From a virus (taxonomy: Duplodnaviria > Heunggongvirae > Uroviricota > Caudoviricetes), in IMG/VR virus record IMGVR_UViG_2778261542_000002, positions 1 through 57,194 of that record: a stretch of 57,194 nt of DNA; one strand, 5' to 3'. The first letter of the stretch is position 1. Every line of letters starts with the position of its first letter. The position numbers and the translations under genes are program-made. Positions 2,287 through 34,510 of this stretch are shown in pieces. The notes under the pieces are model-generated. The model worked only from the letters and a program-made list of their open reading frames with translations, was not told where the DNA came from and did not search any database.

Positions 2287-5200
2287 ATGAACAGGACCAG
2301 TCCCCATTATTGTCGCCGCTCAGTACTTTCCTTATTGATATCTGCCTTGATATATGCCCCGCCCGGTATGGCGGCCTTCACTCCTGATGTTATTGGTGTG
2401 GTAAACGATGAGACTGTAGATGGCAACCAAAAAGTGGATGAACGAGGTACAACAAATAACACTCATATTATCAACCATGGCCAGCAGAATGTTCATGGCG
2501 GGGTATCTAATGGAAGTCTTATTGAATCTGGTGGATATCAAGATATAGGAAGTCATAACAATTTTGTGGGGCAGGCTAATAATACAACCATTAACGGTGG
2601 CAGACAGTCAATTCATGACGGGGGTATTTCCACAGGTACGACAATCGAGAGTGGCAATCAGGACGTTTATAAAGGGGGTATCAGCAATGGAACGACAATT
2701 AAGGGCGGTGCTTCACGCGTAGAGGGAGGGAGTGCGAATGGAATACTCATTGATGGTGGTAGCCAGATAGTAAAAGTTCAAGGGCATGCTGATGGTACAA
2801 CGATAAATAAGTCTGGCTCTCAGGACGTAGTACAAGGAAGTCTGGCAACGAACACAACCATAAATGGTGGTCGACAGTATGTTGAACAGAGCACAGTAGA
2901 AACAACAACCATTAAAAATGGCGGTGAGCAAAGAGTATATGAGAGCCGTGCGCTGGACACGACGATTGAAGGCGGAACTCAGTCTCTGAATAGTAAGTCA
3001 ACGGCAAAAATTACGCAGATCTATTCTGGTGGCACGCAAATTGTTGATAACACCAGCACCTCGGATGTTATTGAAGTTTATTCCGGTGGCGTGCTTGATG
3101 TTAGTGGTGGTACGGCAACAAATGTTACCCAGCACGATGGTGCAATTTTAAAAACAAACACTAACGGTACGACGGTGAGCGGTACGAATAGTGAAGGTGC
3201 ATTCTCCATCCACAATAAAGTGGAAGACAATGTGTTGCTGGAAAATGGAGGCCATTTAGAAGTATCTCATTCCGCAAACAAGACGATTATTAAAGATAAA
3301 GGAACAATGTCAGTTTTAACGAATGCTAAAGCTGATGCGACCCGAATAGATAATGGCGGGGTTATGGATGTTGCAGGAAACGCGACAAATACCATAATTA
3401 ATGGTGGCACACAGAATCTTAATAATTATGGCATAGCCACAGGCACCAATATCAACAGCGGAACGCAAAATATCAAAAGCGGTGGGAAAGCTGACACAAC
3501 AATTATATCCTCCGGGAGCCAGCAAGTTGTTGAGAAAGATGGTACGGCAATTGGCAGCAATATTAGCGCCGGAGGCTCGCTGATTGTCTATACCGGCGGT
3601 ATTGCACATGGGGTTAACCAGGAGACGGGCAGTGCTTTAGTTGCCAACACGGGCGCAGGGACTGATATTGAAGGATACAACAAGCTCTCTCACTTCACTA
3701 TTACCGGAGGGGAGGCTAATTATGTTGTGCTGGAAAATACCGGCGAACTGACGGTAGTGGCTAAAACCTCGGCGAAAAATACTACCGTTGATGCTGGCGG
3801 TAAGCTGATTGTCCAGAAGGAGGCTAAAACAGATACCACCAGACTTAATAATGGTGGCGTTCTGGAGGTTCAGGACGGTGGTGAGGCTAAGCATGTTGAG
3901 CAACAATCCGGCGGCGCATTAATTGCTTCCACAACTTCCGGAACCCTTATCGAAGGAACCAACAGTTATGGTGATGCTTTCTACATCAGGAATTCAGAAG
4001 CTAAAAATGTAGTGCTGGAAAACGCTGGCTCATTAACAGTCGTCACTGGTTCCCGGGCAGTTGATACGATTATTAATGCCAACGGCAAAATGGATGTTTA
4101 TGGAAAAGATGTTGGCACTGTACTTAATAGTGCTGGCACCCAAACAATATATGCCAGTGCCACTTCTGATAAAGCAAATATCAAAGGTGGCAAGCAAACG
4201 GTATATGGTTTAGCCACTGAGGCAAATATTGAAAGTGGTGAACAAATTGTTGATGGTGGGTCAACTGACAAAACGCACATCAATGGCGGCACACAAACCG
4301 TTCAGAATTATGGTAAGGCGATCAATACCGATATCGTCTCTGGCCTACAACAAATTATGGCAAACGGGATAGCGGAAGGTTCCATTATTAATGGGTGTTC
4401 ACAGGTAGTTAATGAGGGCGGTCTGGCTGAAAACTCGGTGCTTAATGACGGCGGCACACTCGATGTGCGGGAGAAAGGCAGCGCAACGGGGATACAGCAG
4501 AGTAGCCAGGGCGCTTTGGTTGCAACCACCAGGGCGACGCGGGTCACAGGAACACGCGCGGATGGCGTCGCGTTCAGCATCGAGCAGGGTGCGGCGAACA
4601 ATATCCTGCTGGCAAATGGCGGCGTGTTAACCGTGGAGTCAGACACCTCTTCTGACAAAACACAGGTCAATACGGGCGGACGGGAGATCGTCAAAACAAA
4701 AGCCACTGCGACAGGCACGACGCTCACCGGCGGCGAACAAATCGTCGAGGGGGTGGCGAATGAGACAACGATTAACGACGGCGGAATACAAACAGTTTCA
4801 GCTAACGGAGAGGCAATAAAAACAAAGATCAATGAAGGCGGTACGCTGACAGTTAACGATAATGGCAAAGCGACAGATATCGTCCAGAACAGCGGTGCCG
4901 CTCTCCAGACGAGCACGGCTAACGGTATTGAAATCAGCGGTACTCACCAGTACGGCACTTTTTCCATTTCCGGCAATTTAGCGACCAATATGTTGCTGGA
5001 AAATGGCGGTAATTTATTGGTATTAGCAGGTACCGAAGCTCGCGACTCCACGGTTGGCAGCGGTGGAGCCGCCAACGGCAGTTATCGCAGCTACGGGCTG
5101 GGCGGTCACATTGAAACCGGGATGCGATTTACCGATGGTAACTGGAACCTGACGCCGTATGCATCGTTAACGGGGGTTCACCGCTGATAACCCTGAATAT

Positions 5201-5542
5201 CATTTATCCAATGGCATGGAATCGAAATCAGTCGATACCCGCAGTTTATATCGTGAACTGGGTGCAACGCTGAGTTACAACATGCGTCTGGGGAACGGTA
5301 TGGAAGTTGAGCCGTGGCTGAAGGCGGCTGTGCGCAAAGAATTTGTCGATGATAACCGGGTGAAAGTGAATAGTGACGGTAATTTCGTCAATGATTTGTC
5401 GGGCAGACGTGGAATATACCAGGCAGGTATTAAAGCCTCATTCAGCAGTACGTTAAGCGGGCATCTTGGGGTGGGGTATAGCCATGGTGCCGGTGTGGAA
5501 TCCCCGTGGAACGGGGTAGCTGGTGTGAACTGGTCGTTCTGA
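2287..5542 (+). pseudogene. AIDA-I/Ag43-type autotransporter adhesin, disrupted by frameshift with truncated beta-domain
   Basis: Signal-peptide-like start MNRTSPHYCRRSVLSLLISALIYAPPGMAA; ~950 aa of degenerate G-rich passenger repeats (NGG.Q.V..GG); frame-1 stop at 5185-5187; a different frame continues from 5171 to 5542 and ends in the canonical aromatic C-terminus NWSF; beta-domain far shorter than a full ~280-aa barrel. Confidence 0.6.
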
Positions 5543-6215: not shown

Positions 6216-8549
6216 TCAGGTTGTTGCAGGGTCGTCACATTTTGGCAGCCAGTCGCCGTAGCTTTCCTCTTTCAGCGTCAGGTTGGTCTGTATCCCCTGT
6301 TTGGTATGGCGCTTCTCGTAATTCAGTCCGTATTCCTTCAGCATCACCGGCAGCCCCAGCCCGAACATTTTCAGACTGAGTACATTCCGGTAGCCGTTTG
6401 CCTCCATGTAGGCCAGATAGGCGTGATAGAGGTATTTACGGTAATTACGCGGGATGATACTGGCGTTCCCCATATACATGCCGCTGGTCTGCGGCAGGGT
6501 TTCCAGATAGCCGATAAAATCAAACGTCGGGTCGGCATCCCGTTTGATGTTCAGTGCCTCGTCTGAGTTCTGCTGGGACTGAAGCAGTGACCGGGCGAGC
6601 ATCGGGTCGCTGAACTTCTGCATCAGGTGACGCACGATGACCGCCAGCTCGCGGGTGATTTTGTCCTTAAGCTGCGGGTCGCGCTCCTGCGGGGCTATCT
6701 GTTCCGGGAAGTGAATAATCACCCGCCGGCGTGACACGCCGCCGCTGCGGTCGGTGAAGCGCATCGGGTTATTGTTCACGGCCAGAATTACCGCCGGGAT
6801 GTGCGTGGAGTACGCATCCCGGTATTTCGGGTCAACGGACACCGCATCGCCGCCGGTGATGGCCTTGAGTCCGGCTCCGTCGCCGCTCCATTTTTCCTGG
6901 TCCGGCAGGCGTATCAGTGAGAAGCCAGTTAACGCGGCACGTTCACGCGGGGATTCCAGCGTCTCGATGGTGGCCGACGTGGCGTTATCCTCACCAGCCA
7001 GCAGGGTGGCTATTTCGGCCATGATACTTTTGCCGCTGCCGCCGGGACCGGTCACCTCCAGAAAGAGCTGCCAGTCGTAGCGGTTTGCCAGCACCATAAA
7101 CAGTGCGGCCAGAATCACGTCGCGTTTTTCCGCACGGCCACCGGCGGCACGGTCAAGCCAGCGCCAGAACGCGGGGGCGTGGGTCTCCAGTGTTTCACCG
7201 TCCACCGGCGGGGTGAAATCCACATCGCACAGGGTGCGCATCCAGTGTGACGGACTGTGCGGGTGGAACGTGCCGTTCTGCGTGTCGAGCACGCCGTTAC
7301 GAAAGCCAATCAGGCGGCGGGAGGGGGCTTCCTGCTGCGGAATAATCAGCTTCAGGGTGTCCACCACGGAGGCCACCTTCCCGGAGGAGAACGGCGCGCG
7401 CAGACGCTGAAACAGCCCGGCCACATCCCGGGCAAAGTCCTGTGGTGGCAGCACCTTCCAGACACCATTTTCATAGCGGGACAGAAGCTGGCCGTTGGCA
7501 TCAACCGCGAGCGCCTCGCCGTAATGCTCATAGATACGCATGGCCTTTTCGCTGGTACTCATGGCGGAAAACTCCGCTTCGCTCATGGTGTCGAACGGGC
7601 TTTCAGCCGGTGGCCGGATGGCATCGTAAATGGCCTTACGGGTGGCCTCCCCGCCGTACTGCGTGAAGGCATCATTCCAGTCACCGAAGACCGGCGGCAG
7701 GGCAACAACGCCCTCACACGCATCTGCGGCTGCGGCGGCTTTTGTCTGGCCGTCACCGCTGAGGTCACGGTCTGCGGCAAGGACAATCTGACAGGCCGGA
7801 TACTTCTGTCGGGCAAGGCTGGCCAGAGAAAGGAGGTTCACGGAAGAAAGCGCCACCATCACCGTTTCACCGGTCAGGTGATGCACGGTAAGTGCGGTCG
7901 CGTATCCCTCCGCTATCCACAGACGTTTTCCTGCCTGATTCTGTCCTTCAAGGGTGTGACAGGTGCCCCTGACCTGTCCGCCTTTCAGGGTGCGCTTACG
8001 GCCGTCAGCACTGATTAACTGAAGGTTAACCAGTTCGCCGCTGTCGTCATACAGTGGCACCACAAGGTCACCGGCGCGCCAGCTCACGCCACCGGCTCTG
8101 TGTGTGCCGGTCAGCATCCGGCATTCCCGGCCGGGAAAGCCCTTGCGGGTCAGGTAGGCGTTACCGGTTCCGGGACGGGTTTTTGCCATCAGGGTTTGTG
8201 CCAGTGCGGCGGCGTTCTTCCGGGCGGCTTCTGTTTCAGCACCGGCGGCGGCCGTCACTGCCGGGTCAGCCGGGGGCAGGCAGCCGGTCACGGCAGCCAC
8301 CTTTGCGGCCGCGTCGGACGGGGAAACACCAAACACCTTTTCAACCAGTTTCAGGCCGTCACCGGCACCACACTGATTGCAGTACCAGGTGCCACGCCCC
8401 TCCCTGTCATCAAAACGGAAGCGGTCACTCCCGCCACAGACCGGACAGGGCTGATGACGGTTCTTCAGCACCTGAATCCCCAGCGCCGGGAGAATACGCG
8501 GCCAGTGGCCGAGCGCATGGCTGACGGTGGCGGTTACGTTCATTTTCAT
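6216..8549 (-). CDS. alpha: P4 alpha-type primase-helicase (777 aa)
   Basis: N-terminal zinc-binding primase motif CPVCGGSDRFRFDD...WYCNQCG; Walker A GPGGSGKS; length identical to P4 alpha; flanked by iteron clusters. Confidence 0.9.
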   Translation of the reverse strand: MKMNVTATVSHALGHWPRILPALGIQVLKNRHQPCPVCGGSDRFRFDDREGRGTWYCNQCGAGDGLKLVEKVFGVSPSDAAAKVAAVTGCLPPADPAVTAAAGAETEAARKNAAALAQTLMAKTRPGTGNAYLTRKGFPGRECRMLTGTHRAGGVSWRAGDLVVPLYDDSGELVNLQLISADGRKRTLKGGQVRGTCHTLEGQNQAGKRLWIAEGYATALTVHHLTGETVMVALSSVNLLSLASLARQKYPACQIVLAADRDLSGDGQTKAAAAADACEGVVALPPVFGDWNDAFTQYGGEATRKAIYDAIRPPAESPFDTMSEAEFSAMSTSEKAMRIYEHYGEALAVDANGQLLSRYENGVWKVLPPQDFARDVAGLFQRLRAPFSSGKVASVVDTLKLIIPQQEAPSRRLIGFRNGVLDTQNGTFHPHSPSHWMRTLCDVDFTPPVDGETLETHAPAFWRWLDRAAGGRAEKRDVILAALFMVLANRYDWQLFLEVTGPGGSGKSIMAEIATLLAGEDNATSATIETLESPRERAALTGFSLIRLPDQEKWSGDGAGLKAITGGDAVSVDPKYRDAYSTHIPAVILAVNNNPMRFTDRSGGVSRRRVIIHFPEQIAPQERDPQLKDKITRELAVIVRHLMQKFSDPMLARSLLQSQQNSDEALNIKRDADPTFDFIGYLETLPQTSGMYMGNASIIPRNYRKYLYHAYLAYMEANGYRNVLSLKMFGLGLPVMLKEYGLNYEKRHTKQGIQTNLTLKEESYGDWLPKCDDPATT

Positions 8550-29890: not shown

Positions 29891-29907
29891 TTTTGTGGAG
29901 AAAGTTG

Positions 29908-30255
29908 ATGCGTGATATGTATGAAGTATTGGACCGCTGGGGAGCATGGGCTGCAGCAGATAACAGTGGCGTGGACTGGCAGCCGATAGCAGCAGGCTTC
30001 AAGGGGCTTTTACCTCATGGCAAAAAGTCCCGGATTCAGTGTGATGATGACGAAGGCATTATGATAGACAGTTGTGTGGCTCGGTTGAGAAAGTATAAAC
30101 CAGAGGAATATGAGCTAATCATAGCTCACTTTGTCATTGGTATCTCATTACGCACTATTGCCAAGAAGAGAAGATGTTCAGATGGCACAGTTAGGAAAAA
30201 ATTGCAGACTGCCTTGGGGTTTGTTGAAGGATGTATTTGTTTGATTGAGTTCTAA
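29908..30255 (+). CDS. Q: 933W/H-19B-type antiterminator Q
   Basis: Starts MRDMYEVLDRWGAWAA..AAGFKGL, closely matching the 933W-type Q N-terminus as I recall it; GGAGA Shine-Dalgarno; last gene before the lysis region. Confidence 0.8.
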   Translation: MRDMYEVLDRWGAWAAADNSGVDWQPIAAGFKGLLPHGKKSRIQCDDDEGIMIDSCVARLRKYKPEEYELIIAHFVIGISLRTIAKKRRCSDGTVRKKLQTALGFVEGCICLIEF

Positions 30256-30274
30256 AAAGAATGAGGCGTAAGCC

Positions 30275-30844
30275 TCATTCTTTATCTTTAATTATAAGTT
30301 TCGATTTTTCATCATGCATTTTGTCTATCATAAAATACATACCTAATGCCGTTGTGTATATAATGTTGCATATGGTACTTAAATAAATAAACAAAAGTAA
30401 TGATTTCACTAGTGGATATGATGAAAGGTGTAACTCCTTGATGCTTGCGCTGGTTAGTTGAAGTGCGCCTCCAACGAAATACAGCGCGATACTCATAAAC
30501 GCTAAATAACCAAATAGATAAGTGAGGAATTTACGCCTTGTAAGTTTTTTACCTTTTAATACCGGAGGTATGCCATGCATAACTTCATCCATACCATCCT
30601 TACTGAAGGTTGCAACTGCAGCCATAGATGCAATGTAAAAACCAGATAGTATTTGAAGTATCCCGTTTACTAAAGACACAAGACTATCCTTCCCGAGAAG
30701 TGAGATGGTTTTCGGTAAGTAATAGATGGATAAAGTAATAATTGCAGCAGTGAAAATGGGTAAAACCCAGTCAAAAAATCGCTTCTCAGGATGCTTTATG
30801 CGTAGGTAGTCTATAGGTGTAAAAACCTTAGATAAAACATACAT
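30275..30844 (-). CDS. small four-pass membrane protein (189 aa) - cargo gene 2 of the Q-lysis cassette
   Basis: AAGGAGG Shine-Dalgarno before ATG at 30844; four hydrophobic ~20-aa segments; AT-rich; opposite strand to the phage late operon. Confidence 0.6.
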   Translation of the reverse strand: MYVLSKVFTPIDYLRIKHPEKRFFDWVLPIFTAAIITLSIYYLPKTISLLGKDSLVSLVNGILQILSGFYIASMAAVATFSKDGMDEVMHGIPPVLKGKKLTRRKFLTYLFGYLAFMSIALYFVGGALQLTSASIKELHLSSYPLVKSLLLFIYLSTICNIIYTTALGMYFMIDKMHDEKSKLIIKDKE

Positions 30845-30876
30845 ATATGCCTCCTTTTGACAGGTTTTCCATGCCT

Positions 30877-31812
30877 TCACTTTAACATAAAGTTTTGCAT
30901 TTTTGCGAGAAGTTCTTCGTGAAATGCTGTTTGGCAAACGGCAATTGTTGATGCCAACACTGCTTTTTCACGTTGTGCCAATTGTGCTGTTGCGAGTTCC
31001 TGTAAGCTCATTTCTTTTCCGATGGAAACAAGATCTGATGAAACGCGTTTATTTTTGTCTTTATAAGAAATTCTTAACATTGTATACTTTCTACCACGAA
31101 GTTTGTCATATGCAGACTTAATCGCCTTAATTGCACCCTCTCCGCGACGTATTTTTGTTGATAGCTTTAGTGTTTCTTCTTCAACCATTACTGTGCCATC
31201 ATCATCTAAAGAGTTATCTTTAAAGCGACGAGTAGCAGTAAGTCCACATAAATAACCAGTGGATAGAGATTGCTCAAGTGTTGTTGCAGCCAAAAAATCA
31301 ATGTCGAAAATAGGTCTGCACTTAAGTTCTTTTTTCCCTCCTGAACGGATAAAGGAAAAATTATTTTCTCGCAGGAAATAAGTTAAAGCTTGGGCTAATA
31401 AACCTCTGGTAATGCCCGGAACTTCTTCTAAAATTGCCTCATAACAATCTTGGAATGATGAGTCGCTCGGTCTTTTTTTTATAAGCACATGAGCAGAGTA
31501 CCCCATACCTTCATCATTTTGCTTTTTCTCAATTCTGGTTTCACCAGTTTTTATGTTGGAAAAGGCGGGATCAGAAGCATCTTTATTTATATATTGAAAA
31601 AGCAATTTCAGGTAATTTTCATCGTCTTTTATGGATAGCAATCTTATGACAGAACGTCCTTTGTTTAATTCGTAAACAGCTTCTCCTTTGTTATAGCGAT
31701 TTTTTAAAACAGGAATACAGTTTACTAAAGGCATGTCAGGTGCGTCATTAGGATACTTCTTTAAAGTAACCTGGCATTTGATCATGAAACGTTCATTATC
31801 TCCCAAGAGCAT
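30877..31812 (-). CDS. hypothetical soluble protein (311 aa) - cargo gene 1 of the Q-lysis cassette
   Basis: AT-rich ORF immediately upstream of the membrane-protein gene on the same strand; no motif confidently recognised. Confidence 0.6.
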   Translation of the reverse strand: MLLGDNERFMIKCQVTLKKYPNDAPDMPLVNCIPVLKNRYNKGEAVYELNKGRSVIRLLSIKDDENYLKLLFQYINKDASDPAFSNIKTGETRIEKKQNDEGMGYSAHVLIKKRPSDSSFQDCYEAILEEVPGITRGLLAQALTYFLRENNFSFIRSGGKKELKCRPIFDIDFLAATTLEQSLSTGYLCGLTATRRFKDNSLDDDGTVMVEEETLKLSTKIRRGEGAIKAIKSAYDKLRGRKYTMLRISYKDKNKRVSSDLVSIGKEMSLQELATAQLAQREKAVLASTIAVCQTAFHEELLAKMQNFMLK

Positions 31813-31965
31813 ATCTGTTCCTTATACGAGCACTAATACTGATTGCTGTTTTTAGTTCAGCAGAACCAAAGGTTAACTGATGGTGCTTGATAGTATATAT
31901 TTTTCACTAACGCGTACGCAAAAAGTATTGTATCGTGTTAAGAGTGGTTACTTCGCCACACAGCT

Positions 31966-31997
31966 TAAACCCGCCGTCGAGCGGGTTTTGTCGTTTC
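31966..31997 (+). terminator. tR-prime-like terminator of the late promoter leader
   Basis: AACCCGC/GCGGGTT stem followed by TTTTGTCGTTT, ~150 bp upstream of the holin gene. Confidence 0.35.
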
Positions 31998-32140: not shown

Positions 32141-32467
32141 ATGCCTCATAACCCAAATACCTGGCTGGACTTGCTCCAGAGCTGGTGGCGTGGAGACACA
32201 CCGCTGGGCGCAGTGATTATGTCGATCGTTATGGCTGGCTTGCGCATTGCCTATTTTGGCGGTGGTGGTGGCTGGAAACGAAAAACGCTCGAGATTTTGC
32301 TCTGTGGTGCTCTGACGCTGACTTTTGCATCCGCTCTTGAGTATGTCGGATGGCCTAAATCTCTTTCTGTTGCCATTGGTGGCGGCGTTGGGCTGATCGG
32401 GGTCGATGCTATTCGTGGGGCTGCAATGAGAGTAATCGGTAATAAGTTTGGTGGCTCTAAGGAGTAA
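32141..32467 (+). CDS. putative holin
   Basis: 108-aa protein with hydrophobic segments directly preceding the endolysin gene. Confidence 0.55.
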   Translation: MPHNPNTWLDLLQSWWRGDTPLGAVIMSIVMAGLRIAYFGGGGGWKRKTLEILLCGALTLTFASALEYVGWPKSLSVAIGGGVGLIGVDAIRGAAMRVIGNKFGGSKE

Positions 32468-32470
32468 TTT

Positions 32471-32947
32471 ATGCAGGTACTAAATTCCCAGCGTAAAGCT
32501 TTCCTCGATATGGTGGCATGGTCAGAAGGAACGGATAACGGGCGACAACCGACACGTAACCACGGTTATGATGTTATTGTCGGTGGAGAACTCTTCACTG
32601 ATTACTCCGATCACCCTCGCAAGCTTGTCACGCTAAACCCGAAACTCAAATCAACAGCTGCAGGCCGTTATCAACTTCTTTCGCGCTGGTGGGATGCTTA
32701 CCGCAAGCAGTTAGGGCTGACAGACTTCTCTCCTAAAAGCCAGGATGCTGTTGCATTACAGCAGATTAAAGAGCGTGGCGCTTTACCGATGATTGATCGC
32801 GGCGATATTCGTCAGGCTATCGATCGTTGCAGCAATATCTGGGCGTCGTTACCTGGTGCAGGTTACGGTCAGTATGAACATAAAATCGGTGACCTGATTT
32901 CCCGGTTTAAAGAGGCTGGTGGGGTGGTAAATGAAGTTGAGCTATAA
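32471..32947 (+). CDS. R: lambda R-type endolysin (lytic transglycosylase)
   Basis: Near-colinear with lambda R as I recall it: NSQRKAFLDMVAWSEGTDNGRQ.TRNHGYDVIVGGELFTDYSDHPRKLVTLNPKLKSTAAGRYQLLSRWWDAYRKQLGL. Confidence 0.9.
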   Translation: MQVLNSQRKAFLDMVAWSEGTDNGRQPTRNHGYDVIVGGELFTDYSDHPRKLVTLNPKLKSTAAGRYQLLSRWWDAYRKQLGLTDFSPKSQDAVALQQIKERGALPMIDRGDIRQAIDRCSNIWASLPGAGYGQYEHKIGDLISRFKEAGGVVNEVEL

Positions 32948-33486: not shown

Positions 33487-34113
33487 TCAGTTGTCAAATG
33501 AATATACGTTAAAGGTATATGTCGACATAATTTCACCAAGTACCTCAATACATATACTTTTTTTATGAAAATTACTGGGAAATGAACTTAGCTCTTCAAG
33601 GTATTGCACATAAGTGCTGATATCACTTGCATCACGTTCAAGGAATTTCACTTGGCCAAAAGAAGGAGTATTAATCCTGGTTCTTTGCTGGATTATATGG
33701 ATAAAATGTGTAGTTGGTGAAACTATTACTCTTGAAATATCGGAAATGATGTCTTCTTGAACTTGCCGATAAAGTAAATCCTTTGGGTAATGGTGTTTTA
33801 TCTCGATGGTTGCAACATTGCCATTATGTTCAGACGTTAATATCGACTGGTTATAAAGTGATATGTCAACAGCGCCGATACCGAGTTTTGGATGCTCACT
33901 TAAAGCAGTTAGTGTGCTGATTTGATTGAGTATAACAACTAACTCATCACGTATTTGTGTTTCATGTTTGCGATTGTAGAAGTAGCCATTCAGTTCATTT
34001 AACTTTTTATGCATCCTATCGTGACTAATTGCTTCGATCAGTAAATCCTGAATCATACTTTTCTCTAGGTAATCCGAACGGTTGTAAGTGACAGTATTGT
34101 GCTGGCATGTCAT
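33487..34113 (-). CDS. hypothetical protein (208 aa) - cargo gene 2 of the lysis-terminase cassette
   Basis: AT-rich ORF on the strand opposite to the late operon; no motif recognised. Confidence 0.55.
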   Translation of the reverse strand: MTCQHNTVTYNRSDYLEKSMIQDLLIEAISHDRMHKKLNELNGYFYNRKHETQIRDELVVILNQISTLTALSEHPKLGIGAVDISLYNQSILTSEHNGNVATIEIKHHYPKDLLYRQVQEDIISDISRVIVSPTTHFIHIIQQRTRINTPSFGQVKFLERDASDISTYVQYLEELSSFPSNFHKKSICIEVLGEIMSTYTFNVYSFDN

Positions 34114-34156
34114 TAATATGTAAAGGTATTGTGAATACCAGAAAGATAACGAAGTA

Positions 34157-34510
34157 TCATCGATAGAAAAACTTTACAGCCCACTCGTAAACAGCTTTGT
34201 AAATCGGTTCATGGTAAATACTATCGATACTATTCAGATGTGCGATCATCGCCTCCACAGTTGTAGTGGTTGTTTCTAATATTTCGATTATTGCAGGGCG
34301 GTCATCATCTTCATCGAAGTATTCGAACAGCAGTACAGGTTTACCATGCCATTCAGCATCTGAGACTCTAAGGTTACAACTACCGCTCAACTCAAAGTGA
34401 ATTTTGTAATTACCTTCTACAGAATGGCCTACGGGGAAAAAGTATAGGGTGTCATCTTTGTTCAAAAGCCATTCCCATTCATAACTATTCATTTGTGAAC
34501 TCCTGTTCAT
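34157..34510 (-). CDS. hypothetical protein (117 aa) - cargo gene 1 of the lysis-terminase cassette
   Basis: AT-rich ORF, acidic, upstream of the 208-aa gene on the same strand. Confidence 0.55.
   Translation of the reverse strand: MNRSSQMNSYEWEWLLNKDDTLYFFPVGHSVEGNYKIHFELSGSCNLRVSDAEWHGKPVLLFEYFDEDDDRPAIIEILETTTTTVEAMIAHLNSIDSIYHEPIYKAVYEWAVKFFYR

Follow-up and report, generated by a model that had tools for sequence, protein, structure and literature searches.

The window analyzed here is the whole stretch of 57,194 nucleotides (nt) of IMG/VR virus record IMGVR_UViG_2778261542_000002, an Escherichia coli prophage, in which an AT-rich insert of 1.65 kb follows the gene for the antiterminator Q. 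The insert contains two intact minus-strand genes, here named A and B (Table 1), and the GC content over positions 30150-31950 was 0.34-0.39, compared with 0.52-0.58 in the flanking phage genes. The original prediction, made from the sequence alone, had described an opposite-strand, AT-rich insert of two genes that encode a 311-residue protein and a 189-residue protein with four transmembrane (TM) helices; the open reading frames (ORFs), the GC content and the hydropathy profiles agreed with this description. The strong Shine-Dalgarno sequence that had been assigned to B was also found, as AAGGAGG, in the 32-nt intergenic gap between A and B. The longest ORF of B spans positions 30275-30937. 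We placed the biological start at the ATG at 30844, which yields 189 residues, because the N-termini of homologues and the RefSeq annotation of near-identical copies agree on it.

At the downstream end of the cassette, the B stop codon (TGA, 30275-30277) falls inside the hairpin AAAGAATGAGGC-GTAA-GCCTCATTCTTT. The terminator scan reported 12 pairs for this hairpin on the plus strand, and its minus-strand reading with a TTTTT tail was taken from the sequence; it is likely a bidirectional terminator that serves both the Q transcript and the cassette. At the upstream end, the allele-specific leader contains an AAGGA ribosome-binding site ahead of the A start and a candidate -10 element, TATACT (31892-31897). 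The best minus-strand promoter candidate combined this element with TTGCGT (31916-31921) as the -35 element across an 18-nt spacer, and it was weak. A promoter-like site (TTAACT-17-TATATT, 31873-31901) was also present on the plus strand of the leader, just upstream of the late promoter pR'; this site is probably without meaning, since it is not conserved in phage SfII and the region is poorer in promoter-like sites than shuffled controls.

Homology searches yielded 39 close word-indexed homologues and 749 profile-level cluster representatives for A, which gives a family of at least 749 clusters at 50% identity, and 164 homologues for B. Relative to an allele of 81-84% identity, the nonsynonymous and synonymous divergences (pN/pS) were 0.102/0.824 for A and 0.125/0.803 for B, with a ratio of about 0.12-0.16, and all six of the nucleotide differences from the copy in E. 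coli H22 were synonymous. Judged by these ratios, both genes are under strong purifying selection. The homologue counts, the pN/pS values and the exclusively synonymous differences from H22 therefore identify A and B as real genes rather than chance ORFs. In 69 IMG/VR phage loci that were fetched through B alone, A was located directly upstream of B on the same strand without exception (69/69). In 60 of 63 pairs, B was better conserved than A; its mean identity to the window protein was 48%, compared with 33.5% for A. In one locus (L062, 4865-6985), A was split into two parts (4865-5401 and 6485-6985) by an insertion of ~1.1 kb while B was intact; A is uninterrupted in the close relatives L061 and L063.

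Neither A nor B has a Pfam or NCBIfam family, which is consistent with the earlier statement that the 311-residue protein carries no recognisable motif. PHROGs gave no informative match, and B also matched phrog_8257, a family of unknown function. The PADLOC models were more revealing. A matched PDC-M53A with an E-value of 1e-17 (62 bits), together with four more PDC-M53A sub-models, and B matched PDC-M53B over its full length (residues 3-178) with an E-value of 1.6e-39. By these matches, the window pair is a member of the PADLOC candidate defence system PDC-M53, and the relatives from SfII and Pasteurella matched the same models. Homology of the pair to a lysis accessory or a known virulence factor, which had been named as an outcome that would speak against a defence role, was not found.

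The original prediction had also pointed to remote homology and structure prediction for the 311-residue protein; the alignments of profiles with hhalign gave no significant match, and it was the structural model that proved informative. A is predicted to adopt a RexA/RdgC-type fold. The model of A resembles RexA no less than an accepted Rex-type protein does, and it was structurally closer to RexA and to RdgC than RexA and RdgC are to each other, a pair for which the published calibration gives a score of 4.4; the model may thus bridge RexA and RdgC. At the sequence level, A showed no hit at E<=1 to the RexA family (Pfam PF15969 and the PADLOC RexA model), on which lambda RexA itself, as a control, scored 9e-110. 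By sequence, A also fell outside the RdgC family PF04381, and a profile search of the sequences in the PDB returned nothing. Comparison of 134 diverse family members with 19-86% identity revealed nine near-invariant positions, R8, L71, P82, R93, E101, G102, H108, E129 and D203.

B contains four hydrophobic segments, at residues of about 23-44, 56-80, 106-128 and 145-167, and is rich in lysine and arginine at its N-terminus, in its central loop (residues 81-105, seven K/R) and at its C-terminus. On the basis of hydropathy and the positive-inside rule, this distribution predicts an N-in/C-in topology, so that the four TM segments anticipated for this protein stood up to the topology check. The AlphaFold2 model of B was a bundle of four long helices with a predicted local distance difference test (pLDDT) value of 82.9 and a predicted template modelling score (pTM) of 0.78. 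A Foldseek search of the BFVD with this model revealed nothing below an E-value of 0.4. We found no hit of B to the RexB family (PF15968), and alignment of the B family with a single RexB sequence or with a 14-sequence RexB profile in hhalign was not significant (probability 0.16% for the RexB family); among structures and sequences, therefore, B had no specific relative, RexB included.

Three arrangements of the pair were found in lambdoid settings. The pair was convergent with a PF06530 Q gene, at most 90 bp from the Q stop codon, in 13 viral loci as well as in the window, SfII, E. coli H22 and Siccibacter. It occupied the rexAB position, directly downstream of an S24 cI-type repressor gene and co-oriented with it, in ~9 IMG/VR loci and two Pasteurella multocida prophages. 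In ~18 viral loci, eight of them with a lambda-type PF03589 Q, it was co-directional between Q and the holin or endolysin gene. The pair was also present outside lambdoid phages (L082, 6058-7579; L083, 6040-7585; L081, 6112-7552), namely in a P2-like element of Aeromonas following gpA, in a P4-like island of Vibrio adjacent to the integrase gene and in a Shewanella chromosomal islet, and these P2-like, P4-like and non-phage contexts argue for a portable cargo rather than a regulatory part of lambdoid phages. The hosts of the family comprise phages of Enterobacterales, Pasteurellaceae, Vibrio, Aeromonas and Shewanella. The P4-like Vibrio island carries a RES-domain gene too, and the Shewanella islet stands alone beside a DEAD-box helicase gene.

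To the left, the slot that holds the cassette is bounded by the Q gene, whose product shows 46% identity to the Q protein of phage 933W and 87% to that of Stx2a_1447, and whose RefSeq copy is annotated as 'antiterminator Q family protein'. The earlier label '933W-type' is acceptable at the family level. To the right, the pR' core includes the conserved palindrome GCGTACGC, and the 82-bp stretch 31907-31989 matches the pR' promoter, qut element and terminator of 933W base for base; it is kept in thousands of E. coli prophages, in phages SfII and SfIV and in Stx2a phages, and the conserved pR' segment has a match in Stx2a_WGPS2 too. The homology between the cassette alleles of the window and SfII ends at ~31906, just upstream of the pR' -35 region, and the insert therefore fills the gap from the Q stop codon to pR'. 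The coordinates of these features are collected in Table 1.

Table 1. Positions of the cassette genes, their signals and the bordering phage features in the window.
Feature	Positions	Strand	Evidence or remark
Q antiterminator gene	29908-30255	+	Pfam PF06530, 9.3e-46; left slot boundary; ORF reaches TTG at 29893
Hairpin	30256-30283	both	GC-rich, 28 nt, T-runs on both strands
Gene B	30275-30844	minus	189 aa; inner-membrane, four TM helices; predicted effector
Shine-Dalgarno AAGGAGG	30850-30856	minus	5 nt 5' of B start codon; read from sequence
Gene A	30877-31812	minus	311 aa, ATG start; soluble, basic; predicted sensor
Allele-specific 5' leader/promoter region of cassette	31813-31906	minus	94 nt
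Late promoter pR' core	31907-31936	+	right slot boundary; aligns to annotated pR' of phage 933W
qut-element equivalent	31950-31957	+	alignment to 933W 'qut' feature; homology only
tR'-type intrinsic terminator	31967-31988	+	terminator scan; aligns to annotated 933W terminator
Holin gene	32141-32467	+	RefSeq copy: lambda-family holin; late/lysis operon start
Endolysin gene	32471-32947	+	RefSeq copy: GH24 lysozyme; Rz/Rz1 next

The junction was found to be a variable cargo site, as had been proposed, since different pairs occupy it in different phages. SfII holds an allele of the pair with 25-27% identity in the same slot. In Stx2a_1447 (L003, 2390-3953), the gap between Q and pR' is filled by an opposite-strand pair that encodes a soluble protein of 343 residues and a protein of 179 residues; the latter has four hydrophobic segments, and its central loop is rich in K/R. 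Homology of this pair to the window pair was not detectable, and PADLOC gave no hit to a system, apart from a weak PtuA-like match (E 0.018). Among 5,426 complete E. coli genomes, four carried the window allele, while the adjoining conserved flank had matches in 2,573. The natural lysogens include E. coli H22, D1, MLI104K1 and 3045. These observations support the view that the junction is a real variable slot, in which the cargo is exchanged horizontally as a two-gene unit.

Two elements of the earlier description had to be revised. The cassette had been placed where Shiga toxin (Stx) phages carry stx, but it occupies the interval from the Q stop codon to the pR' -35 region, whereas stx is located downstream of the pR'-qut-tR' module. 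The order in Stx2a_1447 is Q, the opposite-strand pair, the conserved module, a methylase gene, tRNA genes and stx2AB, with stx ~1.9 kb downstream of the module, so both sites are occupied independently. The cassette had also been said to be transcribed against the late operon; its genes converge with Q and diverge from pR' and the late operon. A Stx-type moron of the late operon, downstream of pR'-qut-tR', co-directional with the late genes and hence Q-dependent, was considered as an identity for the cassette and rejected, as the cassette lies upstream of that module on the opposite strand.

At the boundary between the cassette and pR', the cassette-strand sequence TTTTGCGTACGCGTTAG, which contains the palindrome, was conserved in 10 diverged alleles. 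It lies right at the boundary, at 31907-31923 of the window and at the equivalent position in L001, L007, L012, L014, L017 and L019-L022, and the alleles with this boundary have coding regions that have diverged to 30-60% identity. TTGCGT on the cassette strand could serve as a shared -35 element, back to back with pR'.

A second AT-rich pair (GC 0.32-0.39) was observed on the minus strand of the window at 33487-34510, between Rz/Rz1 and the HNH/terminase genes, and encodes proteins of 208 and 117 residues. These proteins matched PHROGs 12494 and 14397 (unknown function), have no TM segment and were not hit by models of PADLOC, Pfam or NCBIfam. The region is probably another moron slot, since E. 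coli H22 has a different gene there.

We consider it somewhat probable, at roughly 55%, that the cassette serves as a self-contained RexAB-type module for exclusion (abortive infection), borne by the prophage and belonging to the PDC-M53 family. This reading is based on the obligate operon of a predicted RexA-fold protein and a four-TM protein, the fast evolution of A beside a conserved B, the residence of the family in cargo hotspots that include the rexAB position, the allelic turnover and the candidate status in PADLOC. In such a module, the cassette would have a promoter that drives its expression in the lysogen and does not depend on the late operon. The A protein, which probably acts as a dimer, would detect a nucleic-acid or protein-DNA intermediate of the superinfecting phage and would activate B, which would then compromise the membrane potential or integrity, and the infected cell would no longer support phage growth. 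The fast-evolving A would set the specificity of the trigger, and the conserved B would be the common effector. Lambda Rex and the RexABpp pair of Pseudomonas putida are the analogues from which we infer the lysogen expression, the interaction of A with B, the trigger and the effect on the membrane; a model in which A senses and B damages the membrane was proposed for lambda RexA/RexB and has been experimentally reported for RexABpp (PMC12894663). The defence logic of the original prediction was thus reasonable, given the PDC-M53 matches and the RexA-pointing fold of A, while the analogues that it had named (Kiwa, CBASS and Pycsar) gave no hidden Markov model (HMM) hit.

Several results weigh against this assignment. 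The link of A to RexA exists at the fold level only and comes from a predicted model of moderate confidence, in which residues 80-102, the most conserved stretch of the protein, are yet of low confidence. None of the 134 diverse A-family members had a Pfam hit, RexA and RdgC included, and hhalign comparisons of the A family gave probabilities of 0.2-1.8% with RexA (as a single sequence and as a 3-sequence profile) and 0.2% with RdgC. Nothing comparable to the near-invariant polar residues of A is described for RexA, and A may thus have an activity that RexA lacks; R8, R93, E101, H108, E129 and D203 could form a ligand-binding or catalytic site absent from RexA. A generic sigma-70 scan detected no strong minus-strand promoter for the cassette, and the co-directional arrangement between Q and the holin gene in ~18 or more relatives allows for late expression or a lysis-related role. 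In the literature searched, no paper was found on PDC-M53 and no function, fold or mechanism has been published for it there; PDC-x systems are described as unpublished candidates, and the physiological role of Rex is debated even for lambda. The searches for a validated system matching the pair likewise found none.

The main rival holds that the pair modulates its own prophage, with a RexA/RdgC-like, DNA-binding A tuning the lysis-lysogeny switch or RecA/SOS-dependent induction and B adjusting membrane energetics or the timing of lysis. RexA biases the bistable switch of lambda independently of RexB, the paper on the RexA structure casts doubt on exclusion as the true function of RexA, RdgC modulates RecA, and the family adjoins the regulatory hubs cI and Q in lambdoid phages, often directly before the holin gene. 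We nevertheless regard this explanation as unlikely: the pair is also carried by P2-like and P4-like elements and by a non-phage islet, the window pair is on the opposite strand with its own terminator, and its allele is rare beside a very common flank. Moreover, unrelated pairs replace the cassette in the same slot, and PADLOC lists the pair as a defence candidate.

A non-abortive superinfection exclusion, in which B, helped by A, would stop incoming phages at DNA entry or at an early step at the membrane without cell death in a Sie/Imm-like manner, would suit the prophage-borne position of the pair in moron sites and the fact that the inner-membrane protein is the more conserved partner. We judged it rather improbable, as B has an obligate soluble partner with a predicted DNA-binding-type fold, the known analogues, lambda Rex and RexABpp, have been described as systems of abortive infection that damage the membrane, and no homology to known Sie-type proteins was found in PADLOC or Pfam. 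There is even less to recommend a toxin-antitoxin (addiction) module or a host-interaction factor for virulence or fitness unrelated to phages, which we hold to be quite improbable. An operon of two genes, one of them for a potentially toxic membrane protein, that is carried as AT-rich foreign cargo by a prophage of human or animal E. coli would be compatible with it; however, the PADLOC, Pfam and NCBIfam scans of A and B revealed no toxin-antitoxin, secretion or virulence domain, a signal peptide was noted in neither protein, and the phages that carry the family differ widely in host and niche. Scarcely credible is a Kiwa-, CBASS- or Pycsar-like system, in which a component that produces a signal or senses attachment would work with a membrane effector. 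Such a system shares only the general architecture of a soluble and a small membrane protein, had no PADLOC model hit at E<=1 and no DUF4868, CD-NTase or cyclase domain in A or the 134 family members, and, in the case of Kiwa, has the reverse gene order; all three were rejected, and for CBASS and Pycsar the fold search of A also gave RexA/RdgC and not a nucleotidyltransferase.

The RexAB-type module favored here is not a new kind of system, since PADLOC had already listed the pair as a candidate and a paper of 2026 described a RexAB-type system. What appears to be new is the assignment of PDC-M53 to the RexA/RdgC fold, as predicted from the model, along with the size of the family, its polar constellation and a Q/pR' cargo slot distinct from the stx site. 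A wider proposal, which we offer tentatively and consider more doubtful than the module itself, is that PDC-M53 is a large, unrecognised branch of the RexA/RdgC superfamily, that Rex-type immunity with a DNA-sensing clamp and a four-TM effector is widespread and modular in temperate phages, and that the gap between a PF06530-type Q and pR', also in Stx phages, is a dedicated exchange site with a promoter back to back with pR' on the shared palindrome. RexAB was among the first phage-exclusion systems to be described. PDC-M53 offers a comparative handle on Rex, with residues to mutate, many natural A variants that accompany a conserved B, and tractable phages of E. coli and Shigella, SfII among them, that carry alleles of the pair, and the PADLOC candidate in turn gains a concrete, testable mechanism. 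The cargo slot in phages with a 933W-family Q, which is separate from the stx site and filled in some Stx2a phages, also matters for reading the accessory genes of Shiga-toxin prophages.

We compared the window pair with the known systems that it resembles. Kiwa (KwaA/KwaB) also combines a four-TM protein with a soluble protein of ~310 residues, but comparisons by HMM, Pfam and fold gave no match, and the window pair has its genes in the opposite order to kwaA-kwaB. E. coli RdgC, a nucleoid-associated ring dimer that modulates RecA, has no sequence similarity to A and is encoded by a stand-alone chromosomal housekeeping gene without a membrane partner. The Rex-like pairs of actinobacteriophages (Sbash gp30/31, CarolAnn gp44/43 and Butters) consist of RexA-like dimeric DNA binders and membrane partners, exclude heterotypic phages and vary in position and orientation relative to the repressor gene; they differ from the window pair in that they come from another host phylum and were found by BLAST to RexA, whereas the A family was not. 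PDC-M53 is the same in identity, as both window proteins fit its models in the order A then B, but it is a computational candidate only.

The prophage pair RexABpp of P. putida (PP_5643/PP_5644) is a structure-defined RexAB-type pair published in 2026, in which both genes are required for defence and the membrane protein, in which suppressor mutations have been reported, is the growth-arresting effector that permeabilises the membrane (PMC12894663). PP_5643 was linked to RexA by HHpred (98%), while the A family has no such link; the mutated residues of RexBpp reach Y181, so that this protein has at least 181 residues, which is near the length of B (PMC12894663). Lambda RexA and RexB, with 279 and 144 residues compared with 311 and 189 for A and B, have no sequence-level homology to either protein, and the near-invariant polar constellation of A is not described for RexA. 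Lambda RexA is described as a DNA-binding dimer that interacts with RexB, and activation of the system as depolarising the membrane and excluding phages such as T4 rII. Whereas lambda rexAB lies in the PRM operon downstream of cI and is co-transcribed with it in the lysogen, the window pair occupies the Q/pR' gap on the opposite strand, although some of its relatives sit directly after cI as rexAB does. In both cases, a gene for a soluble protein is followed in one operon by a gene for an inner-membrane protein with four TM helices, and RexB shares with B the predicted N-in/C-in topology and the basic central loop.

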